A program made the translations under genes and the position numbers. From an uncultured Acidobacteriota bacterium (GTDB lineage Bacteria; Acidobacteriota; Terriglobia; Acidiferrales; UBA7541), in NCBI GenBank assembly GCA_963696035.1, contig CAVOIS010000006.1:180486-244485 (forward strand): DNA of 64,000 nt, read 5' to 3'. Below, piece by piece: positions 29,697-59,149 of this stretch (position 1 is its first letter; each line of letters starts with the position of its first letter). The notes beneath the pieces are model-generated. The model was not told the DNA's origin, did no database searches, and saw only the letters and a program-made list of their open reading frames with translations.

Positions 29697-30878
29697 ATGG
29701 AGGAAGAAATGGACACCAGAGCGCGACTGTTTTTGCTCTTGGCCGTTGCGATCGGCGTTTCATTTGTGGCTCGGCCAGTTTCAGCCAATACGGCGACCCT
29801 TAAGTGTAATTCTCAGCGGGATCAAATCTGGGTCTATGACTCCCTCAGCACCTTCGATGTCGAGGCAAAGCTGAAATGCGGGGAGCACGTCGAAATCGTT
29901 GGGCGTGTGACGGACTACGTCAAGATTCGCGCTCAAAATGGAGTCGAGGGCTACGTCCCGGAAGCCGCCTTGGCCGATTTGCCGCCGGTCGAAATTCACC
30001 CTGACCCGACCCATGACGTTGCCCTGGTCGCGAAGCAAGTCCAGGCGAAGGAAATCGCGAAAGCCGCGGCGGCTAGCGCTTTTCCTGCCCCTGTTGATTC
30101 GAGCCGTTCAGAATTCGCGCCCCTGTCTGGTTCGGTTGCTACAACGCCAGCGAAGACCACGACAGAGAGCGAGTCGATTTCCAGTGACTCGGCCGCATCG
30201 TTTAGTGCTTTCGCCGAAATGAATCCTACGCCAGCATCTCCAAGGGCCACATCATCGACCGACGCTGCGGAGACATCTTCCACTCAGCCAACAGTCGCAA
30301 ATCCATCTTCATCGCCCAGCATATCGGTCGTCGATGCGACCGCTGCAAGAATCGTCAAGCCGCCTGCTACTGCGAAGGGTCCGCCGGGTGATTCCGCTGA
30401 GATTTCCGATCTCCAGCCGCGAAATGAAAACGCGGACGTCGCCTGTCAGAAGTATTTTTCCGCATACGGCCTGACGCCTAGCCAGGTGAAATGGATTGCC
30501 CAAAATCGGAAAAGGTTATTTTCGAATGTCTGCCCGGCTCCTGATCCTTCGAAAGTTGACTTTGTGATTATCTTTACCCACGACGTGGATTTTTTTAGTA
30601 CCACGATGCCCGAGCCGGTTCACAAGACCAGCGGGTTTTCCGATTTCACGCCGATGACGCCGATCGACACTGCCCTCGTGCCTGAATCCGAGGCGGACAA
30701 AGCACACCGTGAATATGTTTGGATATTTCAATTCGCGAAGGGCACCTTCGATCCGGCCAGTTTCTCTCCGCACTCCCAATATCAATTCTCGAAAATGGAA
30801 ACCAGCTCGCTCGGTTCCAAGGGAAGTCTCAAGACCGTCGCGGATGCTTTTCAATTTGTGGCTGCCGCAAGCCACTGA
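29697..30878 (+). CDS. secreted SH3b-domain protein with Ser/Thr/Ala-rich linker and uncharacterised C-terminal domain
   Basis: Signal peptide (alternative start MDTRAR at 29709). SH3b-like block GEHVEIVGRVTDYVKIRAQNGVEGYVPEAAL. Low-complexity linker. The C-terminal ~150 aa are paralogous to ORF 44498..45064. Confidence 0.65.
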   Translation: MEEEMDTRARLFLLLAVAIGVSFVARPVSANTATLKCNSQRDQIWVYDSLSTFDVEAKLKCGEHVEIVGRVTDYVKIRAQNGVEGYVPEAALADLPPVEIHPDPTHDVALVAKQVQAKEIAKAAAASAFPAPVDSSRSEFAPLSGSVATTPAKTTTESESISSDSAASFSAFAEMNPTPASPRATSSTDAAETSSTQPTVANPSSSPSISVVDATAARIVKPPATAKGPPGDSAEISDLQPRNENADVACQKYFSAYGLTPSQVKWIAQNRKRLFSNVCPAPDPSKVDFVIIFTHDVDFFSTTMPEPVHKTSGFSDFTPMTPIDTALVPESEADKAHREYVWIFQFAKGTFDPASFSPHSQYQFSKMETSSLGSKGSLKTVADAFQFVAAASH

Positions 30879-33156: not shown

Positions 33157-33265
33157 GACCCAAAAGCGCCCTGCGACGGCTCTTGCTCAGAAAAGAACTT
33201 GGCTTTCCACTTCCTTACACGCAGCCGCCGGGTAGGTCGAAAGTTTTTTTCGATCCGAGATCACA
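33157..33265 (+). repeat. dispersed repeat R3, copy 1
   Basis: GACCCAAAAGCGCCCTGCGACGG..CTCAGAAAAGAACTTGGCTTTCCACTTCCTTACACGCAGCCGCCGGGTAGGTCG.. matches 46634-46745 in the same orientation. Confidence 0.6.
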
Positions 33266-35740: not shown

Positions 35741-37609
35741 CTAATTTCGCCCGATCACCGCTGTTGATGTTGCGACCCCCGATGATGTGCGGGGTGGGTT
35801 TTCACTGACAAGCTTCTGCTTCTTCTGGGGCAAACTTTGCAGTCTATCGAGATAGGTCGCAATGCCGCGGTATAGGCCCTCGGCCACACGCTGGCGCTGG
35901 CCGCTCTCGAGCAGCAGGTTCTCGTCGCTCGCATTGTTGACAAAGGAAATCTCCGAAAGCACCGCAGGCATGCTGGCGCCGATCAAAACGACGAAGGGTG
36001 CCTGCTTCACCCCGCGGTTGGTCTCGCGGCGGCTCACGAGCTGGAGTTTCTGCGAGAGCGCGCTTTGGATATCCACGGCAAGCTGTTTCGATTCCACAAT
36101 CTTCTGGTCGCGTGTGATCTTCCTGATCAGTTCCGGAAGATCGTGGAGGGAAGACTGCGCGAGCGCGTTTTCGCGCGTCGCGAGTTCCGTGGATTCCGGA
36201 GAGGCTGTCAGACTGAGGGAGTAGGTTTCGACGCCGCGCGCGTCGCGGTTCTCGCTAGAATTCGCGTGAATCGAGATGAATAGGTCCGCGTTGGCGCCAT
36301 TGGCGATCGCCGTGCGCTCTTCCAGCGAAACGTGCCTGTCGTCCTTGCGTGTGTAAACTACTTCCACACGCGGAATGTTTTCCTCTATCATTTGGCCCAG
36401 CCGCTGCGCCACATCGAGGCATAGGGTTTTCTCGAGCAGCCCGTGGGGCCCGATCGTGCCCGTATCATACCCCCCGTGACCGGGATCAATCGCGATGCGG
36501 TTGATCTTCAGCCCCAATTCCCGTGTCAGTGAGAGTTGACTTTCATGATTGGCGCTTAGCTCCGGCGGCGCCTTGGCCGCAACGTACTTAGGCGCGTCCG
36601 AGCTCAGACCGCGCGGCAGGGCTAGGCCTGCCGATAGCAGAATGACAACGAGGGCGCCCGTCCAAAGACCCCAGCCAGGCGAGCGAGACTCCGCGAGCGG
36701 CTTGTACGAAAGCTGTGCCGGCGCAGGAACGCCGGCAGCCTCCACAGAATCGGTGTCCCCATGCGAAGGCGATAGCGTCGGCGTCGGACGAACAGCAACC
36801 CCAACGTCCAACCCACGATCCGCCTTCTCGACGATGTCCCGCGACACCGTGGGGCGTCCTTGGGCATGTGCTTCCAACAAGGCATGGAAGCAGATGTTGT
36901 TGATGTTCCTCGGAATGCCCTGGCTTCGCTCGGCGACCAGAGCCACGGCCTCCGGCTCAAATAGCGCGCCGCCGCTATGGCCCGCCACTTTAAGCCGGTG
37001 CCGGATATAACCGGCCGTTTCCTCCAGTGACAGGGCTTCCAGATGCTTCACCACCGTAATGCGCTGTAGCAGTTGCGCCAGCTGCTTCTGCCGCAGTTTC
37101 TCCCCGAGTTGCGACTGCCCGGCCAGAACGATTTGCAGCAATTTGGTGTGTGACGTCTCGAAGTTCGAAAGCAGCCGGATGGTTTCGAGCACCGAATCGT
37201 CCAGGTTTTGCGCCTCATCGACGATCAGGACGAATCGCCTGCCCGCCAGCATTTCAGCAAACAACATTTCATTCAATTTGTTGTGCATGGCCACAAGTCC
37301 CATGCCCGTCGAATCGACCCCTAGCTCGCTCAGAAGGTATTGGAAGAATTCGCGCGAGTTGCACTGCGTCTGGAACAGGTACGCGGCACGCGCTCTATCG
37401 CGCAGTCCCTCGAGCACTTGATATAGGAGCGTGGTCTTGCCCATGCCCGGCTCTGCGATCAGCGCCAGAAATCCCCGTCCGCCCAGAATTCCCTCTGTGA
37501 GCGAGTCGAGCGCCTCGCAGTGCGTCCGGCTCGGGTACAGATACGCCGGGTCGGGCGTGACGCCAAACGGCTGCTGGTGCAAATGATAAAAATCGAGAAA
37601 CATACGCAT
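35741..37609 (-). CDS. ExeA/GspA-like AAA+ ATPase fused via one TM helix to an N-acetylmuramoyl-L-alanine amidase (Amidase_3) domain
   Basis: N-terminus: FGVTPDPAYLYPSRTH, Walker A AEPGMGKTT, Walker B FVLIVDEAQNL, LLQIVLAGQ. TM: GWGLWTGALVVILLSAGLAL. C-terminus: IAIDPGHGGYDTGT ... DLFISIHANS ... GVETYS ... PAVLSEISFVNN. Confidence 0.85.
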   Translation of the reverse strand: MRMFLDFYHLHQQPFGVTPDPAYLYPSRTHCEALDSLTEGILGGRGFLALIAEPGMGKTTLLYQVLEGLRDRARAAYLFQTQCNSREFFQYLLSELGVDSTGMGLVAMHNKLNEMLFAEMLAGRRFVLIVDEAQNLDDSVLETIRLLSNFETSHTKLLQIVLAGQSQLGEKLRQKQLAQLLQRITVVKHLEALSLEETAGYIRHRLKVAGHSGGALFEPEAVALVAERSQGIPRNINNICFHALLEAHAQGRPTVSRDIVEKADRGLDVGVAVRPTPTLSPSHGDTDSVEAAGVPAPAQLSYKPLAESRSPGWGLWTGALVVILLSAGLALPRGLSSDAPKYVAAKAPPELSANHESQLSLTRELGLKINRIAIDPGHGGYDTGTIGPHGLLEKTLCLDVAQRLGQMIEENIPRVEVVYTRKDDRHVSLEERTAIANGANADLFISIHANSSENRDARGVETYSLSLTASPESTELATRENALAQSSLHDLPELIRKITRDQKIVESKQLAVDIQSALSQKLQLVSRRETNRGVKQAPFVVLIGASMPAVLSEISFVNNASDENLLLESGQRQRVAEGLYRGIATYLDRLQSLPQKKQKLVSENPPRTSSGVATSTAVIGRN

Positions 37610-37672
37610 GCCCCCCTTCTATCGGCGGCGCAAGGCAGATAGCCTTATCAGATCTCCTGCATCCGAAGGTTA

Positions 37673-37996
37673 CAGCACAAGCTTGAGTCACAGAACGACT
37701 ACGTCCACAGTCAGCGCTCGATTGGCGGGCGGGAGAGCAACTGCACGCGTCTTACGCCATCTGCGACGAACAGAGGATTCTGCTACAGCCAGCTTCTGAC
37801 CGCAACAGTCAGCCCCCCTCGGCGCAGTCGCCTCGTTGGCGGCTGGCACTGGGCGCGCATCCCGGTCCAGATCGCGCGAATTTTGGCCAGCTCTTTTGCG
37901 AGAGGCACTTTCGATCCGGCCAGCTTCTCCCCGCACTGCCAGTATTCTTGAGACCTGCCTTTGAACCGAGCGAGTTTGTTTGCATCTTCGAGAATT
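37673..37996 (+). repeat. dispersed repeat R2, copy A (longest)
   Basis: Aligns by eye with 46908-47190 over most of its length and with 41011-41135 over the core ..CGATTGGCGGG..GAGCAACTGCACGCGTCTTACGCCATCTGCGACGAACAGAGGATTCTGCTACAGCCAGCTTCTGACCGCAACAGTCAGCC... The 3' third is homologous to codons of gene 29697..30878. Confidence 0.7.
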
Positions 37997-38236
37997 TCGT
38001 CAAGGCCTGCAGCCTCTGTCCGAAGCAAGAGTGTGCCTAATCAGTTAACACGTGGATGCGCAGTGTCTCGTTTTGGACAGCTACCTCCGGTCCTGTCTGA
38101 ATATGGTTGTCATCGGTTGTTTCTGGCCGAATTCCGGGGGTCAGTTCGCGAAGGGGCTGGCTCCCGTGAATCAGGAGGACTTTCGATACTTTCAGCCTTA
38201 CGAGATCGCGTCAAGCAAGCTGACCAACCCTCGGTC

Positions 38237-39577
38237 TTGAACGGACCGGCTGGCAGAAGGCTCCCCTTGCGCATCCTGTTTGTTCATAGTGAGGCCGCGG
38301 AAGTACAGCATTGCGTACGGGAGCTCAGGAGGGCGTATTTCAAGGTCAGCGCAGACGTGGTTCTAACTCCGGCGCAGTCTGCTAGACGTCTGAACTCAAA
38401 ATATTATGACGTGGTGCTAGCTGAGTACCCAGGGCCGAACTGGCGACGACCGCAGGCGCTGGAAATCCTGCATCTACGGGATCGGCAGATTCCTTGCATC
38501 TTCCTGACCGACACAATCCAACCGGAGACCGTGGCGAAACTTATTACAGAAGGCGCTGCGGATTGCGTTGAAATGGATCACGTGGGGCACCTTCCTGTAG
38601 CCATTCGCCGAGCCCTCAATGAGAACAAGCTGCGCGAAGAGCGCGATCAAACAGAAAAAAAGCTGCGCCATTCAGAAGCACGCTACCGCGCTCTTGTAGG
38701 AAACCTGACCTATGGTATGTGTCGTTGCAACGTCAAAGGAAAGTTCCTGGACGTCAATCAGGCGTTGGTGACCATGCTTGGTTATTCTTCTCGCGAGGAA
38801 CTCCTGACCGCGAACCTTGCAACTGATATCCTTTGCGATCCCTCCAAACGAGCACATTTACTGGGCCACTCCATCTCGCAGGATGGCGCCGATCCCCTGG
38901 AAATTGAATGGAGGCGGAAGAATGGCACGACCCTCACAGTTCGGCTCAGCGGACGCGAGGTCAGCAGTCGCGGCGAAATGGACAGCTACGAGATGATCGT
39001 CGAGGACGTCACCCAACAGCGCAAGCTCGAGGATCATTTGCGTCAACAGGCAACCAAGGATTCTCTGACCGGACTAGCCAACTACCGGCATCTGGTGGAA
39101 ACCGTCGACACTGAGATCAAGCGCTCCGAGCGCACAGCGCGGGAGTTCGCGCTCTTGTTCCTTGACCTGGACGGGTTGAAACAGATCAATGATCGGTTTG
39201 GCCACCTAGTTGGCAGTCAGGCGCTTTGCCGGCTGGCCGACGTTTTGTGCATTTGTAGCCGGAAGATTGATACTGCGGCGCGTTTCGGCGGCGATGAGTT
39301 TGCGCTTGTGCTGCCCGAGACAGGGCAGGTGCAGGCCCACTTAGTTGCCCGGCGGATTTGCGACCGTCTTGCGAATGATGGAAAGGAGCCAAAGCTGTCG
39401 GTCAGCATCGGCGTTGCTATTTATCCGACAGATGGCGAAACGATAGATTTTCTCTTAGGCGCGGCAGACGCAGCATTGTACTCGATGAAAGCTAGAACAC
39501 GCAGCCGGACGCGAGCACCCAGTGGAAGACCGCGGAGATCCGTGATAAGGCGGAGGGACGGTAGCAAGACGGGCTAG
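38237..39577 (+). CDS. pseudo-receiver-PAS-GGDEF diguanylate cyclase
   Basis: ORF 37961..39577. The upstream part translates repeat R2, so TTG 38237 is proposed (start uncertain). The REC-like domain lacks the acidic pocket (VHSE), the phospho-Asp (VLAEY) and the Lys (CVEMD). PAS follows, then GGDEF with intact RFGGDEFALV and I-site RKID five residues upstream. Confidence 0.85.
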   Translation: MNGPAGRRLPLRILFVHSEAAEVQHCVRELRRAYFKVSADVVLTPAQSARRLNSKYYDVVLAEYPGPNWRRPQALEILHLRDRQIPCIFLTDTIQPETVAKLITEGAADCVEMDHVGHLPVAIRRALNENKLREERDQTEKKLRHSEARYRALVGNLTYGMCRCNVKGKFLDVNQALVTMLGYSSREELLTANLATDILCDPSKRAHLLGHSISQDGADPLEIEWRRKNGTTLTVRLSGREVSSRGEMDSYEMIVEDVTQQRKLEDHLRQQATKDSLTGLANYRHLVETVDTEIKRSERTAREFALLFLDLDGLKQINDRFGHLVGSQALCRLADVLCICSRKIDTAARFGGDEFALVLPETGQVQAHLVARRICDRLANDGKEPKLSVSIGVAIYPTDGETIDFLLGAADAALYSMKARTRSRTRAPSGRPRRSVIRRRDGSKTG

Positions 39578-39840: not shown

Positions 39841-40533
39841 TTACTCGTGCAGGACGACGCTGAGGAGGGAATTGTGAATCTCAAGTCCGCCATTGTAATG
39901 AATGAAGCCGAGTTTCCTGAATTTGTTCATAAAAAAATTTACGCGTGAGCGTGTTGTGCCGACCATTTCCGCCAGCATCTCCTGAGATACTTTGGGGAGC
40001 ATCTTTGGAGGTTGGCTTTGTTTACCATAGCGCGCCAGCAGCAGCAGAGTACGCGCCAGCCGTTTCTCGCTGGAGTTGAAAAGCTGATCGACCAAGTCTT
40101 CCTCGACTCGGATGTTCCGTCCAAGTATGTAATAAATGAAACGGTCGGAAAACGCGTGTTCCTCACGGAGCACGCGCATCATCTCTTTCTTTTCAATGAA
40201 TAGTATGGACGCGGGTATAATGGCCGTGGCCGTCGCCGTGCAAACAGTCTGACCTACCAGGCATCCCTCACCAAAAAAATCGCCCGGTCCCAGAATCGCC
40301 ACGACCGCCTCTTTGCCGACCTCATTGACAACGGAGAGTTTCACACCGCCTTTTTGGATGTACTCCACGCTCTTGGTGGGATCACCTTGAGAGTAGATCT
40401 TCTCTGATCTTCGATACCTCGCAACCTTTCTCGCCACACCGGCCGAATCGAGAAAAGCTTGCACATCGAAAGCGTGCTTGTCCTTGAATTGTATCTTGGA
40501 TTTGACGATGTTCGACCTCGCGATTGCCCGCAT
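39841..40533 (-). CDS. Crp/Fnr family transcriptional regulator
   Basis: cNMP-binding beta-roll (IYSQGDP ... GPGDFFGEG) and C-terminal HTH (SQEMLAEMVGTTRSRVNFFMNKFRKLGFI). Confidence 0.9.
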   Translation of the reverse strand: MRAIARSNIVKSKIQFKDKHAFDVQAFLDSAGVARKVARYRRSEKIYSQGDPTKSVEYIQKGGVKLSVVNEVGKEAVVAILGPGDFFGEGCLVGQTVCTATATAIIPASILFIEKKEMMRVLREEHAFSDRFIYYILGRNIRVEEDLVDQLFNSSEKRLARTLLLLARYGKQSQPPKMLPKVSQEMLAEMVGTTRSRVNFFMNKFRKLGFIHYNGGLEIHNSLLSVVLHE

Positions 40534-40664: not shown

Positions 40665-40871
40665 CTACTTCTTCGATAGCTCGCCCTTGAAATGACCTTC
40701 AACATCTTCACGACTCAGAGGGTTTCTGGCTTTGGTCAATACGACCGAATAGACGACCTCATTCCCTGCAATCTGCGCGGTGATAAATGCCCCGTCTTCC
40801 GGCAGTTCTTGGTAGATGAATTTCACCTTCCTGCCGTCTTCAAGTTTCTTGATCCACTCTTCGTCTTGCAT
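40665..40871 (-). CDS. 68-aa hypothetical protein
   Basis: ATG preceded by GGAGAGATACGAAA. No recognisable domain. Confidence 0.4.
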   Translation of the reverse strand: MQDEEWIKKLEDGRKVKFIYQELPEDGAFITAQIAGNEVVYSVVLTKARNPLSREDVEGHFKGELSKK

Positions 40872-41010: not shown

Positions 41011-41135
41011 GTCCAGCGACACCGTGGGGCGATTGGCGGGGCCGGGGGAGCAAACTTCGCGCGTCTCAAGCCATCTGCGACGAACATGGGTTTCTGCTAC
41101 AGGCAGCTTCTGACCGCAACAGTCAGCCTCCTCGG
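41011..41135 (+). repeat. dispersed repeat R2, copy C (core only)
   Basis: ..GCGATTGGCGGGGCCGGGGGAGCAAACTTCGCGCGTCTCAAGCCATCTGCGACGAACATGGGTTTCTGCTACAGGCAGCTTCTGACCGCAACAGTCAGCC... It lies 320 nt upstream of the TonB-dependent receptor. Confidence 0.65.
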
Positions 41136-41454
41136 CCTACTGGTTTGCTATCGGTCGCTGACGCATCCTAGCTCTGACATTGAGCTTAGAAATGCTGAAA
41201 TCAACAGGGCCTGGACGGCCACGCGAAGATCCGTGGCCGTCGCAACTTTCCGCTCAGTCGCTGCTCAACGGCACCATCGGATCCACCCGGGACGCAATGA
41301 GCGCCGGGATTTAACATTGTGCGAGCGCGGCTGTGGTGAGCAAAACTGACCCTCCAATGAAAGTGGCAGGGTCGGTCGCAGTCACGCCAAACAATTCGCT
41401 TGAGAACAAACGTGTCAGGGACGGGGCCCAACACCGGTTGTAGAATAGGCCCAA

Positions 41455-45064: not shown

Positions 45065-45909
45065 GTTCAGTGCCTTAGTAAATGTTTTCGGTCGCAGCCA
45101 AGCCTAGTTGGTCCTGTGCTGATTTCCTCTCCCAACCAGGGATACGGCAACTCACATACCAAGGGTAAGTGTCATGTGTTCAATGAGGTGGTTTCGCCGG
45201 GCGCCATCGCTATGGAACTTCAGTTCCAACGAGTTCGCAGGATATTCCGTGCCGAGGTTCTTTCAAAGGTCCGTGGCTATTGCGTGGGAATTTTTTTCAA
45301 GCTGCCGACAACCGTAAGAGCCTGGGCCCGGGTGAACCTCTCCGAGGTCTCCGACGTTAGTTCTTGTACTACCAGGACGCTTCCCTGGCGCATTCGAAGA
45401 ATGACTCCTGGGACCGGTTCTATCACCAAGGCATTCACCTGCTCGAATGGTTTGGCCAGGATGATCGCGTTCGGATACGACGATCGAAACAGAATCTCCA
45501 GGTGAAATTGACGCGTTCTCTTCCCTATGGTGGCGATTTCGTGTCGTACATCGATGCGATCGGCGAAGTGGATGGGACAAAATGCATCATCGGTGCCTAC
45601 ATGAAAATATCTCCGTCTATTCCGTTTTAAGTGCACCTAGTTCACCATGTTCACGTTCTCCGATTTGTGGTCCACCTGGGGGCACGGTTTTCTGTGGTTC
45701 CGGTTGATTCATTTGCGCCAGACGGTGGGTTCTTCAGGTCCGAGCACAAGCTGCAGCCCTCGCGGTTAACCGAAGTATCGATCTCGAGTGCGGAGCGACG
45801 TAGCAGCGTGTGAATCCGCGCTCGGGTATCGCGGCTGAGCAGAAGTACCCAGCCAGTGTTCGTCCGTTTGCGCTCGGTCAGACCGAATGACGTCAAGACG
45901 TGCCCGAAC

Positions 45910-46174
45910 GCCCTGGCTTCGCTCGGCGACGAGCGCCACGGCCTCCGGCTCAAATAGCGCTTCGCCGCAATGGCCCGCCACTTTCAGCCGATGCCGGATA
46001 TAACCGGTCGTTTCCTCCAGCGACAGAGCTTCCAGATGGTTCACCACCGTAATGCGCTGCAGCAGTTGTGCCAGCCGATTCTGTCGCAGTTTCCTCCCCG
46101 AGTTGCGACTGCCCGGCCAGAACGATTTGCTGCAATTTGGTGTGCGACGTCTCGAAGTTCGAAAGCAGCCGGAT
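45910..46174 (-). pseudogene. fragment copy of the ExeA-like ATPase gene
   Basis: About 265 bp align with 36917-37181 at high identity by eye (KLRQNRLAQLLQRITVVNHLEALSLEETTGYIRHRLKVAGHCGEALFEPEAVALVAERSQG). A 1-nt insertion (GTTTCCTCCCC versus GTTTCTCCCC) breaks the frame, and both gene ends are missing. Confidence 0.75.
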
Positions 46175-46633
46175 GATTCACTCAAGATTGTAAGTTGAAA
46201 AGAATAAATTCCACGATTCCTTCGCGTCTCGAAGAGGGAATCGACCGCACAAAACAGCGTTATCTCCAGATTGTCATCTGTGATGCCACGGTGCGGGGTA
46301 CCAAGAAAGAAGTACCAATAGGCTATTGCTGTAACCGAATTTAAGGAGTCGTATGAAGAATAGCCGCCGCAGCGATTCGCTCAGTTCGGCTCGCTATGGC
46401 TCTTGTGTTTTGGTCTTGTCGCCGCAACGAATTGGGCGCAGAAGGATGAAATGGGCGCAATTAGCTCTCAGGTAGATTATAGCTTCGTGCTCGGAGTGGC
46501 CAGTGCAGTCGTCGGTCTCTGCGTTATGTTGACGGCGCATCACGCGCTGAGGGCTTTGTGGAAGATGCAGCGCACTACGCATTCTGGACGACCGCGGCGA
46601 CGAAAGTGAAGGGTCTAGTTACTGGTATGAGTT

Positions 46634-46745
46634 GACCCAACAACGCCCGGCGACGGCCGAGAACTTTCTCAGAAAAGACTTGGCTTTCGACTTCCTTACA
46701 CGCCGCCGCTGGGCAGGTGGTAAGTCTTTTCCGACCCGAGTCACG
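46634..46745 (+). repeat. dispersed repeat R3, copy 2
   Basis: GACCCAACAACGCCCGGCGACGG..CTCAGAAAAGACTTGGCTTTCGACTTCCTTACACGCCGCCGCTGGGCAGGTGG.. matches 33157-33265. Confidence 0.6.
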
Positions 46746-46907
46746 CCGTGCCCGCCCCCCATTCAGCCAAGCTATTGCTGGCGACGCTCAACGCCAAATC
46801 TGCAGCCAACAAATCAAGTAACTGGAGCCAGCGCCACCGACGAGAGATTGAAGCAGAACAAACCGAAGAAGAAATATGCAGGAGACAGGCTCCCCGCATC
46901 GGGGTTC

Positions 46908-47190
46908 CAGCACAAGCTCGAGTCACAGAATGACTGCATCCGCAGTCGGCGCTCGATTGGTGGGGGTGGGAGAGCAACTGCACGCGTCTTAAGCCATCTG
47001 CGACGAACAGGGGATTCTGTTACAGCCATCTTCTGACCGCAACAGTCAGTCTCCTCGCGCAGGCGCCTCGTTGGCGGCTGGCATTGGGCGCGCATCCCAT
47101 ATATCCAGATCGCGCGAATTTTGGCCAGCTCGCTTTCGCGAGAGGCACTTTCGATGCCAGTATCAATTCTCGAAGAGGGAAATAAACTCG
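46908..47190 (+). repeat. dispersed repeat R2, copy B
   Basis: Starts CAGCACAAGCTCGAGTCACAGAATGACT.. like copy A and contains the same core. Its 3' end is homologous to gene 29697..30878 codons, with a 24-bp deletion and no inversion. Confidence 0.7.
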
Positions 47191-47242: not shown

Positions 47243-49315
47243 CTACGGCACCGTAACACTAGCCGGATTCGAATCAGCACTCTCGACACCGCTGGAATTT
47301 ACCGCAGTCACTACGTAGTAATAAGTGATGCCCTGGCCCGACTGCACGGTCGTGTCCGTGTAGGTGGTTCCCGCAAATGGGGAAGAGGTAAGTTTCGAGT
47401 ACGATCCCGATGTAGTCCCGCGGTACTCGTTATATCCCACAATGTCGGGCGACGTACTCGCAATCCAGGAAAGCGCTACGGATGTGGGTGCAACACCAGT
47501 GCCGGAAAGCGCAATCGTGGCTGGGGAATTCGCGGCGCTGCTGCTAACGGTCACTGTGCCGGTCGCGGCTCCCGGCGTTGCCGGATCGAAAGCCACGGTG
47601 AGCGTCGTTGATTGATTCGGTGCCAGCGTGATTCCCGCGCTTACACCGCTGGGACTGAAGCCGGCGCCCGTCTCGTTTACTCCAGAGATGGTTTCGTTTG
47701 TATTCCCGGTGTTTGTGAGGGTAACGGCCAGCGAACTGGTGGTTCCATCATTCACGTTCCCGAAGCTCAAGCTCGTCGGATTCGTCGCCAGTAGTGCGCT
47801 GGCGGCCACTCCGGTTCCGCCCAAAGCGATGGTAAGCGGCGAACTGGGTGCATTGCTGATCAGTGTGACAGATCCGGACGCGCTGCCGGCAGACGATGGA
47901 GTGAAAACCGCGTTGAACGTCGCGCTCTTTCCCGTCGCGATAGTCAAGGGTGCATTCAGTCCGGAAGTGCTGAAGCCAGTTCCAATCAAGGCAGCCTGTG
48001 AAATCGTCAGGCTCGCATTGCCGCCGTTCGACACGGTGATGGTTTGCGAGTTACTGTTGCCCACTACTACGCTCCCGAATGCGGCGCTCGATGGTGCAAC
48101 CGCGATTTGTGCCTGCATCCCGGTCCCACTCAACGCAATAGCCATAGGGGAACCTGGGGTGTTGCTGGCAATCGAAACGCTGCCGCTGGCGTTGCCTGCA
48201 GAGGACGGCGTGAAACTCACCGAAAAACCCACGCTCTGACCTGCGCTGAGCGTCATCGGCGTGGACAAGCCGGCGATGGCAAAACCGGTGCCCGAAGTGC
48301 TCGCAGATGAAATCGTGATACTGGCTGTACCGGAGTTCGTCAGGGTCATCGACTGCAATCCGCTGCTGCCTACGGCCACGCTGCCGAAACTCACGCTCGT
48401 CGAACTAGCGTTGAGTTTTCCCTGAACTCCTGTTCCGCTTAGTGCAATAGTTGCCGGTGATCCGGGGGCATTACTGCTAACCGAGATGCTGCCCGAATTG
48501 CTACCCGCCGCTGCCGGTGCAAATTGGGCCGCAAATGTTGCGCTTGCACCTGGAGCAACCGTTTGGGGCAGAGCTAGTCCACTGATGCTGAATCCTTGAC
48601 CAGACAATGTCGCCGACGAAATCACCAGCGTGGCGGTTCCAGAGTTGGTCAGCGTAATGTTTTGCGAAGAATTGCTTCCCACGTTGACGTTGCCGAAATT
48701 CAAGCTCGTGGGGATGATGCTCCATTGCGACTGCGTCCCGGTTCCGCTCAATGCGATAGTCATGGGAGAACCTGGAGCGTCGCTGGCAATTGAGATGCTG
48801 CCGCTTGCGTTGCCTGCAGAGGACGGCGTGAAACTCGCTGAGAAGCCTACGCTCTGACCCGCGCTGAGCGTCATCGGCATGGACAACCCGGCGATGGCAA
48901 AACCAGTGCCGGAAACGTTCGCAGATGAAATCGTGATACTGGCTGTGGCGGAGTTGGTCAGGGTCATCGGCTGTAATCCGCTGCTACCTACGGCCACGCT
49001 GCCGAAACTCACGCTCATCGAATTAGCGGTCAGTTGTCCGCGCCAGTGATGTCGGAGCCTTTCTGCTGGCGTGCCAGTGCGTCCCGAAGTGTGGCCTGTC
49101 GACGCCGGTGCCGATCGCGCCGGAAATGTTGTGCCCGCAGCTGCGTTAATTGTTGGGGGCAGAGCCAGTCCAGCGATGCTGATAATTATTGCGATGGCTC
49201 TGAGGGTAGTGGTGGGTTGAGGAAGGCGAATGATCCCGGACGGCTTGTGCGAAGTCTGTCTGTAAACTTGAATCTGATAATTCCAATTCTGGGCCCGTAT
49301 TTTCATAGCGCGCAC
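47243..49315 (-). CDS. secreted repeat protein: five Ig-like (choice-of-anchor-D/ASH-like) domains plus a C-terminal fibronectin type III domain
   Basis: Signal peptide LRAIAIIISIAGLALPPTINA. Five ~100-aa units of pattern SxxFGxVxVGxxxxQxxTLTNSGxAxxxIS ... GFSxSG ... FTPxxAGxxSGSxxxxSNAPxSPxTIALSGTG. The tail VALSWIASTSPDIVGYNEYRG ... TYTDTTV ... YYYVVTAVNSSGVES is FN3-like. Confidence 0.75.
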   Translation of the reverse strand: MRAMKIRAQNWNYQIQVYRQTSHKPSGIIRLPQPTTTLRAIAIIISIAGLALPPTINAAAGTTFPARSAPASTGHTSGRTGTPAERLRHHWRGQLTANSMSVSFGSVAVGSSGLQPMTLTNSATASITISSANVSGTGFAIAGLSMPMTLSAGQSVGFSASFTPSSAGNASGSISIASDAPGSPMTIALSGTGTQSQWSIIPTSLNFGNVNVGSNSSQNITLTNSGTATLVISSATLSGQGFSISGLALPQTVAPGASATFAAQFAPAAAGSNSGSISVSSNAPGSPATIALSGTGVQGKLNASSTSVSFGSVAVGSSGLQSMTLTNSGTASITISSASTSGTGFAIAGLSTPMTLSAGQSVGFSVSFTPSSAGNASGSVSIASNTPGSPMAIALSGTGMQAQIAVAPSSAAFGSVVVGNSNSQTITVSNGGNASLTISQAALIGTGFSTSGLNAPLTIATGKSATFNAVFTPSSAGSASGSVTLISNAPSSPLTIALGGTGVAASALLATNPTSLSFGNVNDGTTSSLAVTLTNTGNTNETISGVNETGAGFSPSGVSAGITLAPNQSTTLTVAFDPATPGAATGTVTVSSSAANSPATIALSGTGVAPTSVALSWIASTSPDIVGYNEYRGTTSGSYSKLTSSPFAGTTYTDTTVQSGQGITYYYVVTAVNSSGVESADSNPASVTVP

Positions 49316-49747: not shown

Positions 49748-50896
49748 ATGGAAGCAAAGAACAATTCGCGAATTGGTGCTGTTATTTTGGCGGCTGGGAC
49801 TTCCTCTCGAATGGGGGAAGCCAAGCAACTGCTTCGTCTTGGCGACAGCACCTTGCTGGATCAAGTAGTGGAGAACGTGCGCGGCTCCCAAGTGGACGAA
49901 ATCGTTATCGTTCTCGGTCACGAGGCGGAAACAATAAAAGAGCTGATTGCGATCAAGAGTCTCCATGTGGTGATCAACGAATCCTATAGGCAAGGAATGG
50001 GGACTTCACTGCGGACTGGCCTCTCGGCTTTATCTGCCGGAGCGGATGCGGCACTAATCGTTTTAGCGGACCAGCCCTTTGTTCGTTCCGCGACTCTCGA
50101 CCGCATCATTGATCACTATCGGCAGTCCGGTGCCCAAATTGTGATTCCTATCTACAAGGGTTTTCGCGGCAATCCAGTGCTATTGGATCGCTCGGTCTTT
50201 TCCGAAGTCATGGCTCTCACCGGAGACCTTGGCTGCCGCGCCATTTTTGGCAACCACTTGGAGGGAATCGCCAAGGTGCCGGTTGAAGACGTCGGAGTTC
50301 TTCTCGACCTGGACAGTAAACACGACGTGGAACGCTTGCAAGATTTCCGTCGCGGCACGTCGGACGAAAGCTCCTTGATGGAAGCAGCCGATCTGGAAGG
50401 CAGAGCGATTACAGATGAGAGCCAGTCCTCTCAGAGTCCAGAAGTCACCATCGTCGGTACGGAGCCGGTTGGAATCGCCCTGGCGAAATTGGCGAAAGTA
50501 CTGCGCTTCACGGTGACATTTGTTGCCCCTATGCTGAAGATCTCCGATTTGCCGGAGGCGGATCGCTTGCTAAATTCCCTGGATTTTTCGCATTTGCCGA
50601 AGTGCTCAACGCGATATGTAGTGGCGGCGAGCCGCGGACAATTCGACGAAGAGGTGGTCGAGCAAGCCTTGCACGCGAACAGTTCCTACATCGCACTGGT
50701 CGCGAACAAAAAAAGAGCGCAAGAGATTCGCCGTAGCCTGGAGTTGAAAGGTGCGCCACCTGAAAAGTTAGCGAAGGTGCATGCTCCCGCAGGACTTCCC
50801 ATCGGGGCAGAAACTCCGGAGGAGATAGCGCTAAGCATCATGGCGGAGATCGTTTCTGAAATTCGAACCAGCGGCGGAAGTAAAATCAGTTGCTGA
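49748..50896 (+). CDS. MocA-like molybdenum cofactor cytidylyltransferase fused to an XdhC-type Rossmann domain
   Basis: N-terminus: GAVILAAGTSSRMGEAKQLL ... VINESYRQGMGTSLRTGL ... LIVLADQPFV ... GFRGNPVLL (NTP_transf_3/MobA-MocA). C-terminus: VTIVGTEPVGIALAKLAKVLRFTVTFV ... YVVAASRGQFDEE ... PAGLPIGAETPEEIALSIMAEIV (XdhC_C). Confidence 0.8.
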   Translation: MEAKNNSRIGAVILAAGTSSRMGEAKQLLRLGDSTLLDQVVENVRGSQVDEIVIVLGHEAETIKELIAIKSLHVVINESYRQGMGTSLRTGLSALSAGADAALIVLADQPFVRSATLDRIIDHYRQSGAQIVIPIYKGFRGNPVLLDRSVFSEVMALTGDLGCRAIFGNHLEGIAKVPVEDVGVLLDLDSKHDVERLQDFRRGTSDESSLMEAADLEGRAITDESQSSQSPEVTIVGTEPVGIALAKLAKVLRFTVTFVAPMLKISDLPEADRLLNSLDFSHLPKCSTRYVVAASRGQFDEEVVEQALHANSSYIALVANKKRAQEIRRSLELKGAPPEKLAKVHAPAGLPIGAETPEEIALSIMAEIVSEIRTSGGSKISC

Positions 50897-50933
50897 TTCC
50901 GAGAAATGTGAATCGGACGGCAGGGCCGAAGGA

Positions 50934-51782
50934 TCAGCGGGCCGGGTTCGCCTCACACTGGTGAATTACCTTGTCGGCGGCGGTGCTTTCCGAAGGCACA
51001 TGGGAGTGCTTGAGACTTTTCACGCTGCTACCCCGCCGCAGCGCAACCATTTGACTCACGATACTTAGCGCAATCTCCTCCGGCGTGGCAGCTCCGAGAT
51101 CGAGACCTGCTGGCGCCCAGACCTTCTCCACTTTCTCTGGAGCCACTCCGGTCGCAAGAAGAAAGTCGAGTACGAGTTTCGAACGATACTGGCTGGCGAT
51201 GAGGGCAACGTAGGCCGCATTGCCTTCTAACGCCTTCTGCAGCCAGAGATGGTCTTGCTTATGCAGCGTTGCGATTACCACGAAAGTTCGGGAACTAATC
51301 GGCGTTTCGGTGAGATCGAAGTCTTCATTGACGAGACGAACTGCATGAGGAAACGATTCGCGGTCAGCCGCCGGATCATTGACCGTAACGGAAAAGCTCA
51401 TTAGATGCGCGAGCGTGGCCAGCACTTCTGCAATCCGGCCGTGGCCAACAATCAACAACTCGGGTTGCGGGAGAACGGGCTCGATATACACATCCATTTT
51501 CCCTCCGCATGGCATCCCTACGCCCAACAGTTCGTCCATCATGTCCAAAGTGATGAGTTCTGGCCTTTGCAGTTCCATGCATTTCAAGGCTTCGCTTCTC
51601 ACCGCGCTCTCGGCGCAGCCGCCGCCCACCCATCCCAGCGCGATCTTGCCCTGTGCGTCAATAATGGCTTTCGAACCTTGTTTAGCGGACGATGAGCCCT
51701 CCACGCGAACGACAGTAGCTATCGCAAAGGCTTTCCCCTGCGCTGCGAGTGCAGAGGCCTTGCAATAAAATTCGGAGGACAT
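50934..51782 (-). CDS. XdhC/CoxI family molybdoenzyme maturation protein
   Basis: Start taken at MSSEFY (51782; the listed ORF extends to 51824). FAIATVVRVEGSSSAKQGSKAII ... GWVGGGCAE ... LLIVGHGRIAEVLATLA ... PAGLDLGAATPEEIALSIV. Confidence 0.8.
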   Translation of the reverse strand: MSSEFYCKASALAAQGKAFAIATVVRVEGSSSAKQGSKAIIDAQGKIALGWVGGGCAESAVRSEALKCMELQRPELITLDMMDELLGVGMPCGGKMDVYIEPVLPQPELLIVGHGRIAEVLATLAHLMSFSVTVNDPAADRESFPHAVRLVNEDFDLTETPISSRTFVVIATLHKQDHLWLQKALEGNAAYVALIASQYRSKLVLDFLLATGVAPEKVEKVWAPAGLDLGAATPEEIALSIVSQMVALRRGSSVKSLKHSHVPSESTAADKVIHQCEANPAR

Positions 51783-51787
51783 GATCC

Positions 51788-52234
51788 TTGACGTATCATA
51801 TTCCTTCCATATCGTGCATTTCAACGCAGGCGACGGATCCTACGTTATACAGTGAACAAGTCCGCGAGCACTATACCAACCCACGAAACGCGGGCAGCAT
51901 TGCCGACCCTTCCGGCAAGGCGATGGTCAAGAGTTCGGTCGACAGCGACACCGTCTTAATCACACTGCGAATTGAAAATGACGTGATCCAGGATGTGAGA
52001 TTCAAATGCATGGGATGCGCCATAGCCATCGCCTGTTCGTCGGTGGCCACTGAAATGGTCCGGGGCAAGCCCGTCCGGGAGGCCTATGAGATCACCAAGC
52101 AGGCTGTGGCGGACGCTGTAGGTGGCATTCCCGAGTACAAGATGCAGTGCAGTAATCTGGCCCCAGAAGCCATTCGGAAAGCCATTGACGATTGGCGTCT
52201 CGGGCGGCGAAGCAAAGTTGAAACGACACGATAG
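51788..52234 (+). CDS. IscU/NifU-N-like Fe-S scaffold-type protein
   Basis: YSEQVREHYTNPRNAGS ... DVRFKCMGCAIAIACSSVATEMVRGK ... MQCSNLAPEAIRKAI aligns with IscU. TTG start uncertain. Confidence 0.7.
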   Translation: MTYHIPSISCISTQATDPTLYSEQVREHYTNPRNAGSIADPSGKAMVKSSVDSDTVLITLRIENDVIQDVRFKCMGCAIAIACSSVATEMVRGKPVREAYEITKQAVADAVGGIPEYKMQCSNLAPEAIRKAIDDWRLGRRSKVETTR

Positions 52235-52647
52235 TCGACGCGTCGATGGTCATCATGAGACGCTCCTTGAGTATCAGGGAAATCCTGATATAGGAAGTGG
52301 TATTTTCCCCCGCAACTGAGTGAGTACAACTCCCGCTTGCCATCATTACTCAGGAGGTTAACCTCTCGTTGCGCGCGCCTGGATCCTATGTCTGTTTTAA
52401 AACTGGGAACCGAGATGAACAGCAACCGAATCAGAACGTTAGAACATTCACCGGACGCAAAGCAAAGCTCGCCACTCGGTTCAGGTTCGCTTAAATCGTG
52501 GACCGTCCAATCTGGGATGTAGTATCCTCGCAAACTGATATGGGGATTTCGTGTGATTTCGTCCCTGTTTTTGGAATTGACCGCCCTTCCTGCAGACCCC
52601 TATCCATTGCTAGATTCAGCGGCACCCAGTCGAGGTGAAAGGCAAAC

Positions 52648-53517
52648 ATGATTCCACCATCGTTTGAGTACTTCCGGCCCAAAACGATTCCAGAGGCGAT
52701 CGCTCTGCTGCAACAACACGGGGACGACGCGAAAATTCTAAGCGGCGGCCAAAGCCTGATTCCGATGATGAAGCTCCGACTCGCAAGGCCGGGTTATCTC
52801 ATCGACATTAATCGCATCGCAGGCCTAGCGCATATCAAGGAAGAAGGCGGCCATTTGAAGATCGGCGGGCTGACCCGCGAAGCCGAGCTGGAGGCGTCGC
52901 CGGTGGTGCGCGCAAAGTATCCGATCATCGTTGATACGGCTCACGTGATCGCGGACCCTCAGGTGCGAAATCTGGCCACCGTGGGAGGTAATTTGGCCCA
53001 TGGGGATCCAGCGAACGACCATCCTGCGACCATGGTGGCCCTGGGTGCTCAAGTGGTGGCAACCGGGCCGAAGGGTGAGAGAATCATACCGATCGAGAAT
53101 TTCTTCCTGTCTTTATTTAGCACCGCACTTCAGCACGATGAGATCCTCACTGAAATTCGTATACCGATTCCGCCGCCTCGCAGCGGGGGCGCCTACTTCA
53201 AGCTAGAGCGAAAGGTCGGGGACTTTGCCACGGCGGCTGTGGCCGTCCAGTTAACTTTGGACGGAAAAGGTGCTTGTCAGAGAGTAGGTATCGGCCTGAC
53301 GAATGTTGGCCCCACGCCGGTGAAAGCAAAAAAAGCAGAGGATTATCTGCGCGGCAAGAAACTCGACGAAGCCAACATTAAACAAGCAGCCCAGCTCGCT
53401 GCCGACGAGTCGGAACCGAGCGCAGACTTGCGTGGCCCGGTTGCATACAAGAAGGGTTTGGTAAAGGAGCTAACGAAGCGGGCGTTGATGCGGGCGTCGG
53501 ACCGCGCCAGCAAATAA
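52648..53517 (+). CDS. coxM: CO dehydrogenase medium (FAD-binding) subunit
   Basis: FEYFRPKTIPEAIALL ... KILSGGQSLIPMMKLRLA ... ATVGGNLAHGDPANDHP is the FAD_binding_5/CO_deh_flav_C pattern. It is the first gene of the M-S-L order. Confidence 0.9.
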   Translation: MIPPSFEYFRPKTIPEAIALLQQHGDDAKILSGGQSLIPMMKLRLARPGYLIDINRIAGLAHIKEEGGHLKIGGLTREAELEASPVVRAKYPIIVDTAHVIADPQVRNLATVGGNLAHGDPANDHPATMVALGAQVVATGPKGERIIPIENFFLSLFSTALQHDEILTEIRIPIPPPRSGGAYFKLERKVGDFATAAVAVQLTLDGKGACQRVGIGLTNVGPTPVKAKKAEDYLRGKKLDEANIKQAAQLAADESEPSADLRGPVAYKKGLVKELTKRALMRASDRASK

Positions 53518-53544
53518 CGATTTTCATCAATCGAGGCAAACGCG

Positions 53545-54057
53545 ATGGCAAAAAAACAGACGGTGCGCGTCAAGGTGAATGGCCGGGAGCGAGAGGCAAA
53601 CGTCGAGCCGCGAACACTGCTTGTGCATTTCATCCGGGACTGGCTGGGATTGACCGGCACGCATGTCGGCTGCGACACCAGTAATTGTGGCGCTTGTACC
53701 GTCGTCCTTGACGGTAAGAACGTAAAATCATGCACCATGTTTGCGGTGCAGGCTGACGGCTCGGAGCTACTCACCGTCGAGGGTCTAATCAAAGATGGGC
53801 AGTGGCATCCATTGCAAGATGGATTCAAACAAGAGCACGGGCTGCAGTGTGGTTTCTGTACTCCCGGCATGCTGATGTCCACCTACGCTCTGCTGCAAAG
53901 GAATCCCGATCCGACCGAAGAGGAGATCCGCTGGGGCATTTCGGGGAATTTGTGCCGCTGCACGGGCTATCAGAACATCGTGAAAGCAGTTCAGTTTGCC
54001 GTCGGCAAGATGGGACAACCGAAGGAACAGCCGGTGGAAGAAGGAGTGGCCAAGTGA
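53545..54057 (+). CDS. coxS: CO dehydrogenase small ([2Fe-2S]) subunit
   Basis: Two cluster motifs: [12 protein letters not shown] and CGFCTPGM ... CRCTGY. Confidence 0.9.
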
Positions 54058-56408: not shown

Positions 56409-56411
56409 GGC

Positions 56412-56972
56412 ATGGCGCTGCAAATCCAAAAGACTTTCCAGGTAAGCGAGCCGGTGGAAAAAGTGTGGAGCTTCCTGAGCGATCCCAGGAAGGTCGCCGC
56501 GTGCGTGCCCGGCGCGCAAATCACCGAGCAAGTGGACGAAAAGACCTACAAAGGCGCGATCAGCGTCAAGGTGGGCCCGAGCGTCACCGATTACAAGGGT
56601 GAAGTGCAGATCGTTCGCCTGGATAATCAGAACCACGAGATCGAAATCCTGGGCAAAGGGCAGGACGTGCGAGGCCGCGGCAGCGCATCCATGAAGATGA
56701 CGGGCAAGCTCCGCGCGCTAGATGATGGCGGCACGGAGGTAACCAGCACTTCCGAGTTGAACGTGGTGGGCATCCTGGCCCAGATGGGGTCGCGCGTCAT
56801 CAGCGAAGTCTCGAATATTATGTTCGGAGAATTTACCAAGGAGTTCCAAGCTCGCATCGCGCAGCCGGAGGCTGCTCCTGACACGGCCGCGGAGGCAACC
56901 CCTGGCAAACCGATTAGCGCTACTTCGGTGGCGTGGCAAGCCGCTAAAGGTGTATTTCGCCGCGATTCTTGA
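56412..56972 (+). CDS. coxG: SRPBCC-fold CoxG family protein
   Basis: FQVSEPVEKVWSFLSDPRKVAACVPGAQITEQVDEKTYKGAISVKVGP is the typical CoxG N-terminus. It starts 4 nt after coxL. Confidence 0.85.
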   Translation: MALQIQKTFQVSEPVEKVWSFLSDPRKVAACVPGAQITEQVDEKTYKGAISVKVGPSVTDYKGEVQIVRLDNQNHEIEILGKGQDVRGRGSASMKMTGKLRALDDGGTEVTSTSELNVVGILAQMGSRVISEVSNIMFGEFTKEFQARIAQPEAAPDTAAEATPGKPISATSVAWQAAKGVFRRDS

Positions 56973-57022
56973 AGCATGCGCGAACGAAAATGATTGATGA
57001 TGGAATTTGATTTGAACCTACC

Positions 57023-57925: not shown

Positions 57926-57994
57926 TCCCATTCGGTGATTACATTTTTTGCGTGCGAATCGGGATGCGAAATCACGGCGCGGTGGATAGTGACC

Positions 57995-59128: not shown

Positions 59129-59149
59129 TGCCTGACAAGGTGATGCGAA

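Follow-up and report, generated by a model that had tools for sequence, protein, structure and literature searches.

The DNA analyzed was a stretch of 64,000 nucleotides (hereafter, the window) from an uncultured Acidobacteriota bacterium (Terriglobia; Acidiferrales; UBA7541), corresponding to positions 180,486-244,485 of the forward strand of contig CAVOIS010000006.1 in the assembly GCA_963696035.1. On its minus strand the window carries a gene in which an ATPase of the ExeA/GspA type is fused, through a linker and a transmembrane helix, to a peptidoglycan amidase; the host of this fusion gene is a soil acidobacterium of an uncultured lineage. A first reading of the letters (the original prediction) had proposed a single open reading frame (ORF) of 622 codons with three parts, and the ORF was indeed found at exactly those coordinates, with an ATG start, no internal stop codons and every one of the motifs quoted (Table 1). 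Among these were the amidase motifs DPGHGG (residues 375-380), HANS (residues 448-451) and GVETY (residues 459-463), as well as the hydrophobic segment GWGLWTGALVVILLSAGLAL (residues 312-331). Both domains were supported by profile searches, Pfam placing AAA_22 at residues 44-171 (E 3e-21) and Amidase_3 at residues 372-584 (E 1.4e-48), and the NCBIfam models for AmiA, AmiC and AmiB matched residues 324-598. The AlphaFold2 model of the protein was built from 123 diverse sequences and reached a mean predicted local distance difference test (pLDDT) of 78.9; a model from 30 near-identical homologues only, with a pLDDT of 43, was not used.

Table 1. Features of the fusion gene and of related elements in the window (positions of the window; aa, amino acid residues of the 622-residue protein).
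Feature	Position	Strand	Basis
Complete ORF, 622 aa: ExeA-type ATPase, linker, transmembrane helix, AmiA/B/C-type amidase	35741..37609	-	ORF list, Pfam
ExeA/GspA-type AAA+ ATPase domain, cytoplasmic (presumed), aa 1-270	36800..37609	-	AAA_22, TIGR03015, identity to ExeA, AlphaFold2
Walker A AEPGMGKTT, aa 52-60	37430..37456	-	read from sequence
Walker B VLIVDEAQ, aa 127-134	37208..37231	-	read from sequence
Low-complexity linker, cytoplasmic (presumed), aa 271-311	36677..36799	-	poor conservation, dN/dS, AlphaFold2 pLDDT <50
Single transmembrane helix, aa 312-331	36617..36676	-	hydropathy, AlphaFold2 helix
Amidase_3 catalytic domain, periplasmic (presumed), aa 372-584	35858..36496	-	Pfam, PDB matches, Foldseek
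AmiA/B/C-type regulatory insert, aa ~465-525	36035..36217	-	contiguous alignment with AmiA, AmiB, AmiC
Conserved, gene-specific leader, ~230 nt	37610..37840	-	alignment with upstream regions of orthologues
Response-regulator-PAS-GGDEF diguanylate cyclase, divergent, sharing the intergenic region with the fusion gene	37961-39577	+
Pseudogene fragment of a second copy, ATPase codons ~120/144-232	45906..46255	-	DNA identity, tblastn, translations
Leader copy belonging to the pseudogene copy	46893..47155	-	88% identity to 37656-37915

The alignments showed genuine homology between the N-terminal domain and the cytoplasmic ATPase of ExeA. Residues 3-263 were collinear with residues 1-262 of Aeromonas caviae ExeA (BLASTP, 40% identity, E 2e-50), whose exeAB operon record was found by tblastn of the annotated replicons of a plasmid collection; no BLASTP match was obtained between the fusion protein and GspA of E. 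coli K-12, a cryptic protein which is itself divergent and matches no NCBIfam model. Residues G55, G57, K58, T59, and T60 of Walker A were invariant both in an alignment of 30 fusion homologues (A2) and in an alignment of nine divergent fusion clusters (A4). In Walker B, D131 and E132 were invariant in A2 and D131 in A4, and R234, within the conserved motif GIPRNIN, was invariant in A2. The best NCBIfam match was TIGR03015, the XrtA/PEP-CTERM system-associated ATPase (residues 3-262, E 2.3e-69), which covered 261 of the 269 model positions but scored 233.9 bits, below the cutoff of 324.5. The AlphaFold2 model was most reliable in this domain (pLDDT 94-98), and Foldseek matched it with MuB and TnsC at template-modelling (TM) scores of 0.75-0.78 and also with ORC/Cdc6; by fold, the domain belongs to the oligomerising initiator clade. 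MuB, TnsC and ORC/Cdc6 are AAA+ ATPases that work through nucleotide-dependent oligomerisation and recruitment of partners. The GspA/ExeA plan comprises an AAA+ ATPase in the cytoplasm, one transmembrane segment and periplasmic peptidase-like and PF01471 domains, with gspB usually adjacent; in ExeA the ATPase is required for the formation of the ExeAB complex, and the protein multimerises on peptidoglycan (PMC4098917, PMC9239104). In keeping with the statement of the original prediction that Aeromonas ExeA combines the same cytoplasmic ATPase and transmembrane plan with a peptidoglycan-binding periplasmic part, the region of Aeromonas ExeA beyond the ATPase contained PG_binding_1 (PF01471), together with a GspA_C39-like domain (PF21327), and was followed by an overlapping exeB (T2SSB) gene.

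The only strongly hydrophobic segment outside the amidase core was located at residues 313-331 (Kyte-Doolittle maximum 1.93), and a segment equivalent to this helix was present in seven of the nine divergent fusion clusters. The linker preceding it (residues 271-311) was poorly conserved in both alignments and was modelled with pLDDT <50. Structure prediction of the topology yielded a helix at residues 314-329 between two globular domains, as had been anticipated; its orientation is presumed, the N-terminus being placed in the cytoplasm and the C-terminus in the periplasm from the logic of the domains and by analogy with the topology of ExeA (PMC4098917). The Sec/Tat signal peptide that characterizes soluble AmiA/B/C enzymes was not found; the N-terminus is occupied instead by the 270-residue ATPase, with an internal transmembrane helix.

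The amidase half aligned in one piece, regulatory insert included, with E. coli AmiA (8c2o, E 1.8e-27) and AmiC (4bin, E 1.7e-23) and with AmiB (8c0j, 3ne8), whereas CwlV, 4rn7, and 5emi aligned in two pieces, CwlV-type enzymes being devoid of the regulatory insert. In Foldseek comparisons the domain matched AmiB 8c0j with TM scores of 0.70-0.73. The zinc ligands H378, E393, and H448 and the catalytic E553 were invariant in A2 and A4. In AmiA, Glu167 is the latch of the blocking helix, and Leu184, Leu185, and Val188 form the hydrophobic face of the interaction helix that binds EnvC (PMC10268282). By sequence mapping, E480 of the fusion protein (within RENA, a motif invariant in the family) corresponds to Glu167, and L494, I495, and I498 correspond to the three residues of the activator-docking helix; the position of AmiA Asp135 is occupied by an asparagine, N450, within HANS. 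The insert residues R479, E480, N481, L491, P492, and L494 were invariant in A2. These correspondences point to a regulated amidase of the AmiA/B/C type, in which the elements that division amidases use for autoinhibition and for docking of an activator are both retained; that the active site is occluded is deduced from the sequence, since the insert was modelled at low confidence. Because latch and docking helix are retained, ATP alone is unlikely to gate catalysis, and an activator of the LytM type is probably still needed. The original prediction, which put forward ATP-gated cleavage of the cell wall, was thus supported in part: ATPase and amidase are both intact and homologous to known ones, but gating by ATP alone is unlikely.

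The fusion was found to be widespread among related sequences. In a database of 5.8 billion proteins both Pfam domains were on one chain in 120/120 of the best relatives, which came from independent JGI, ENA, NCBI, and Logan assemblies, and the fusion was intact in more than 100 independent protein clusters; one metagenome protein matched over its full length with an identity of 100% after rounding. The census of domain architectures that had been suggested as a check therefore showed a single protein and not an assembly artefact. Many of these relatives already carry the JGI label [quoted passage not shown]. Exhaustive searching of 1.84 billion cluster representatives with HMMER yielded 67,240 matches; the best 150 of them included nine clusters, defined at 50% identity, in which both halves were present. 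The named relatives were metagenome-assembled genomes (MAGs) of Candidatus Acidiferrales (Acidobacteriota, Terriglobia). When about 185,000 GTDB species genomes were scanned for up to 600 pattern matches and the best 80 loci considered, so that the counts are lower bounds, the fusion was present in at least one species genome, a Candidatus Acidoferrales MAG, the remaining loci being standalone amidases or ATPase-only genes; no second amidase of that MAG appeared among the matches listed, which is only suggestive. The architecture is thus not rare, being abundant among metagenome sequences of the Acidiferrales type, and it is confined to Candidatus Acidiferrales-like Acidobacteriota.

Ratios of nonsynonymous to synonymous substitution rates (dN/dS; Nei-Gojobori estimates against five orthologues) were 0.11-0.22 in the ATPase, 0.12-0.23 in the amidase, 0.15-0.41 in the regulatory insert and 0.44-0.78 in the linker plus transmembrane helix. 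No other part of the protein was as strongly conserved as the ATPase (80-94% amino acid identity). The dN/dS values of 0.11-0.23 in the two halves indicated that selection maintains both of them, and those of the linker that it is relaxed.

In 58 of the 120 closest relatives the protein was longer (about 800 residues) and an AMIN domain (PF11741) lay between the transmembrane helix and the amidase, whereas in the window protein only 40 residues separate these two elements. The 622-residue form was collinear with the long forms save for a clean gap of about 200 residues, and forms with a partial gap were also present in A2. The periplasmic part of the long forms was collinear with whole AmiC and AmiB, from AMIN to the C-terminus, and the nearest standalone amidases (57-68% identity) consisted of an anchor or signal, sometimes TPR, followed by AMIN and Amidase_3. 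The simplest history suggested by these alignments is that an ExeA-like module of ATPase and transmembrane helix (ATPase-TM module) took the place of the export signal in a complete amidase of the AmiC type, with AMIN and a regulated Amidase_3, and that AMIN was lost later in the lineage of the window, the gene being an AMIN-deleted derivative. The idea that a binding domain had been replaced by a hydrolase was accordingly right in position, as Amidase_3 sits where ExeA has its GspA_C39-like and PG_binding_1 domains, and wrong in mechanism, as the alignments suggest the joining of the module to an AmiC-type amidase and not a swap within ExeA. Complete or partial loss of AMIN occurred several times within the family that is 74-95% identical to the window protein (A2), with in-frame deletions of differing extents in P0023, P0087, P0091, P0100, and P0110 as compared to long and short forms.

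The ATPase-TM module was also found, at 50-65% identity, joined to other C-terminal domains, namely TonB_C (six of the ten paralogues sampled), LysM with TPR, TPR alone, or PEGA, and some paralogues carried an N-terminal PilZ domain. The amidase fusion is thus one of the members that make up a modular acidobacterial family. The relatives sampled (P0153, P0199, P0203, P0206, P0218, P0226, P0255, P0262, P0135, and P0145), of which those with TonB_C were the commonest, are all uncharacterised. At a single locus, the TonB_C paralogue P0206 was situated between two bactofilin genes (L091, 2831-3226 and 7855-8250), a hint that wall remodelling guided by the cytoskeleton may be involved.

Genomic context was compared in six cases, the window and the loci L001, L003, L084, L086, and L087. 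In the window the fusion gene stands alone, with an acetamidase/formamidase gene on one side and the divergent response-regulator-PAS-GGDEF gene on the other. No neighbor was common to the six contexts, apart from partial synteny with an orthologue of 91% identity. A gene with the same domains as the window neighbor (Response_reg, PAS, GGDEF) was observed 9 kb upstream of the fusion gene in L003 (1-792); these GGDEF neighbors, together with the PilZ-bearing paralogues, give a weak hint of an involvement of cyclic di-GMP. Synonymous divergence (dS) of the gene with its leader was only 0.3-0.6 with respect to L003, L084, L086, and L087 (0.9 for the linker in L084) and the flanking genes were entirely different; either the surroundings rearrange quickly or the cassette has moved laterally. 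Membership in an anti-phage defence system was rejected, as AbiO was the only PADLOC defence model matched (E 9.5e-4, 16 bits) and none of the matching stretches passed individually.

The leader directly upstream of the gene could be aligned in L003, L004, L084, L086, L112, L124, L126, L141, L150, L174, L180, and L192; a proximal block of about 60 nt was absent from L087 and L150. It was still conserved in L004, at a dS of around 1, and its conservation exceeds neutral expectation. When metagenomes were scanned with an 18-mer from the leader, extended similarity was found in 8 of 120 matches, all eight of them directly upstream of the fusion gene. No Rfam match was obtained in the leader, and RNAalifold returned -4.9 kcal/mol with seven sequences and -9.9 kcal/mol with 15 sequences, with negligible covariation; a structured RNA or riboswitch was thus not supported. 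A scan for sigma-70 promoters gave no site upstream of the gene on its strand. The leader probably comprises promoter, operator and 5' untranslated region.

A decayed second copy of the gene, which had been noticed at 45910-46174, proved to be real: positions 45906-46178 were 92% identical to 36913-37184 over 273 nt. This DNA match covers approximately codons 144-232, weak protein similarity extending back to codon 120, and in tblastn the remnant matched residues 120-170 and 184-232. In the fragment, which comes from the ATPase, the reading frame shifts close to codon 171 and a stop precedes codon 144; Walker A is absent from it, as is any amidase sequence. It lies 9 kb away in the same orientation and with a leader of its own, as if a cassette made up of gene and leader had once been duplicated or had recombined. 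The distal half of the leader recurs not only with the pseudogene (46893-47155) but also at 41030-41136, as a third, partial copy of 87% identity that is located, on the minus strand, upstream of an ORF of 68 residues (40665-40871) and a Crp/Fnr-type regulator (39841-40533); for this copy, a shared operator and a repeat element are both conceivable. Further short intergenic repeats of 81-84% identity were observed (33157-33264 with 46634-46744, and 30732-30782 with 37895-37945).

Elsewhere in the window, a molybdenum hydroxylase cluster of the cox/xdh type (49748-60118) looked ordinary, with genes for MobA-like/XdhC, an FAD-binding subunit, a large molybdenum cofactor subunit, CoxG, an AAA_5 ATPase, VWA_CoxE, and XdhC/YHS. 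On the minus strand, positions 47243-49315 encode a protein of 690 residues with at least five Ig-like repeats of the ASH/HYDIN/Cep192 type (DUF1573 family), which is probably a surface or periplasmic protein.

Taken as a whole, these features are consistent with a membrane-tethered, cytoplasmically controlled and activator-dependent amidase acting in cell separation or remodelling, a reading of the sequence to which we give an even chance of being correct. The order of the domains is plain from the ORF, and with the presumed topology the transmembrane helix would act as a signal-anchor, tethering the amidase to the inner membrane on its outer face. Conserved residues suggest that the amidase would rest in an autoinhibited state, with E480 on the zinc of the active site, and that it could not fire until the adjacent helix is bound by an activator, which is probably a LytM-domain protein. 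Because ExeA multimerises and the ATPase has a MuB/TnsC/ORC-like fold, ATP-dependent oligomerisation or partner binding may decide where and when the tethered amidases cluster. The most probable job of such a protein would be the splitting or remodelling of peptidoglycan during separation of daughter cells, a role suggested solely by the type of amidase, since in none of the contexts are genes for the divisome, FtsEX, EnvC or LytM linked to the fusion gene. In outcome, not in homology, the fusion resembles a one-polypeptide counterpart of the cytoplasmic control exerted by ATP over septal amidases.

Several observations weigh against this proposal. No genes for FtsEX, EnvC, LytM (Peptidase_M23) or the divisome/dcw cluster were found in the six contexts or in the 64-kb window, and the window form has no AMIN domain for septal targeting. 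The confidence of AlphaFold2 was low in the regulatory insert, and the charges flanking the transmembrane helix leave its orientation undecided. In addition, conformational signals pass poorly through a single transmembrane helix, so the influence of ATP may be limited to assembly or may concern an unrelated process. A bolder version would have the fusion act as a single-polypeptide device passing an ATP-dependent signal to an autoinhibited septal amidase, thus replacing FtsEX-EnvC in an uncultured order of acidobacteria, and, more broadly, would make the ATPase-TM module a general and hitherto unrecognised "inside-out" coupling module of Acidobacteriota for TonB_C, LysM, TPR, PEGA, and amidase domains, sometimes controlled by PilZ and cyclic di-GMP; we regard this version as speculative and rather unlikely.

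A different role, contained in the original prediction, would be that of an ExeA-like assembly factor which cuts peptidoglycan for the insertion of a secretin or envelope-spanning machine encoded elsewhere (a type II secretion system (T2SS), type IV pili or an exopolysaccharide exporter). The 40% identity of the ATPase to a genuine ExeA, which serves secretin assembly, speaks for this role, as does the fact that the periplasmic part of canonical GspA already has a peptidase-like domain; moreover, a study cited among the references of PMC9239104 reports, according to its title, that the defect in secretin assembly seen in a GspA mutant is suppressed by altered cross-linking. The genomic context lent no support to it, however: gspA normally adjoins gspB, and no GspB/T2SSB, secretin, pilus or T2SS gene was present in the six contexts or in the 64-kb window, in agreement with the earlier remark that genes for T2SS or type IV pili are missing nearby. 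Besides, AmiC and AmiB, with which the periplasmic part is collinear, are division amidases, and it keeps their LytM-dependent regulatory apparatus. Insertion of such a machine is in our view unlikely, although still to be taken seriously.

The ATPase-TM module might also be a mere membrane anchor and export signal, in which case the protein would simply be a tethered AmiC and the turnover of ATP would have no regulatory role. The module does take the place of the signal peptide, it occurs on many unrelated periplasmic domains, and one transmembrane helix limits signalling across the membrane. Against this, the ATPase is the part of the protein under the strictest conservation (80-94% identity, dN/dS 0.11-0.22), with Walker A, Walker B and R234 of GIPRNIN invariant, and a domain of 270 residues would not be kept so strictly just as an anchor; we find this explanation doubtful.

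That the protein assists a system for exopolysaccharide, of the PEP-CTERM/exosortase type or for biofilm, with an ATPase of the XrtA-associated type and the amidase remodelling the wall for export of the polymer, seems improbable. It is favored by TIGR03015 being the best NCBIfam match (2.3e-69), by glycosyltransferase, Wzy_C, UDPGP or NTP-transferase genes in L001, L084, and L087, by the GGDEF genes (adjoining in the window and 9 kb upstream in L003) and by the PilZ domains of some ATPase paralogues. The score of that match was nevertheless below the cutoff (233.9 vs. 324.5), and since paralogues with TonB_C or PilZ score the same or higher, it reflects the superfamily rather than this one family; exosortase and PEP-CTERM genes were absent from all six contexts, and the polysaccharide-related neighbors were not conserved between loci.

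Finally, that the fusion is a non-functional, decaying gene or two neighbors merged by an assembly or sequencing error, a possibility brought to mind by the decayed partial copy 9 kb away, was refuted and is hardly conceivable, given the intact ORF here and in more than 100 independent clusters (JGI, ENA, NCBI, and Logan), its presence in 120/120 relatives and in nine fusion clusters at the 50% identity level, and purifying selection on both halves.

Both domains and the general body plan of ExeA were already known, and the combination is visible in automated annotation. No description of this fusion was found in 8.3 million full texts, including a survey of AMIN domains and a review of cell-wall hydrolase architectures. 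How bacteria control lethal hydrolases of the cell wall in space and time is an active question. In the best-understood case, FtsEX-EnvC-AmiA/B, a cytoplasmic ATPase exerts such control by way of three separate proteins. The fusion would offer a compact system in which to ask whether, and how, the nucleotide state inside the cell can set the activity of a hydrolase outside. It would also bear on the general role of ExeA/GspA-type ATPases, a question that decades of work on type II secretion have not settled; the same module is found on several envelope-directed domains.

Compared with known systems, the fusion shares with the ATPases represented by TIGR03015 a top-scoring match to a curated model over residues 3-262, near the full length of the model; it differs in scoring under the trusted cutoff, in having a transmembrane helix and a periplasmic domain beyond the end of the model (around residue 262) and in the lack of exosortase or PEP-CTERM genes in its six contexts. 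The acidobacterial paralogues share the ATPase-TM module and the bitopic plan with the fusion and likewise end in a domain directed at the envelope, but their periplasmic domains bind and do not hydrolyse. With ExeA/GspA, the secretin-assembly ATPase of the T2SS in Aeromonas hydrophila, A. caviae, and Vibrio, it has in common an AAA_22-type ATPase that begins at residue 1, the N-terminal motif F..L...PF...P.P.YLY.S..H.EAL and intact Walker A and B motifs, followed by a linker, a single transmembrane helix and a periplasmic cell-wall domain. In contrast, the fusion has a catalytic amidase of the AmiC type in place of the GspA_C39-like and PG_binding_1 domains, Amidase_3 being the only domain that Pfam finds in its C-terminal half; it is devoid of an overlapping exeB/gspB gene or a nearby T2SS, and its host belongs to Acidobacteriota and not to Gammaproteobacteria.

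The likeness to AmiA/B/C of E. coli, Bartonella, and Citrobacter comprises the Amidase_3 fold, the H/E/H zinc ligands, the catalytic glutamate and a regulatory insert with the putative blocking-helix glutamate and hydrophobic activator-docking helix. The amidase of the fusion differs from these enzymes in standing behind a 270-residue cytoplasmic ATPase, with a predicted inner-membrane tether and no Sec/Tat signal, and from AmiB and AmiC in the deletion of the AMIN domain, which the sister long forms keep in the AmiC/AmiB position. In FtsEX-EnvC-AmiA/B of E. coli a cytoplasmic ATPase controls an autoinhibited periplasmic amidase across the inner membrane (PMC10268282). That system employs the ABC ATPase FtsE on the multi-pass protein FtsX, a separate EnvC and a soluble amidase, whereas the fusion combines an AAA+ ATPase, one transmembrane helix and an amidase in one chain, the ATPase and membrane parts of the two having no homology to each other. 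The likeness is thus one of functional analogy only, a cytoplasmic ATPase together with a periplasmic amidase under putative autoinhibition, and the coupling between them in the fusion is a proposal.

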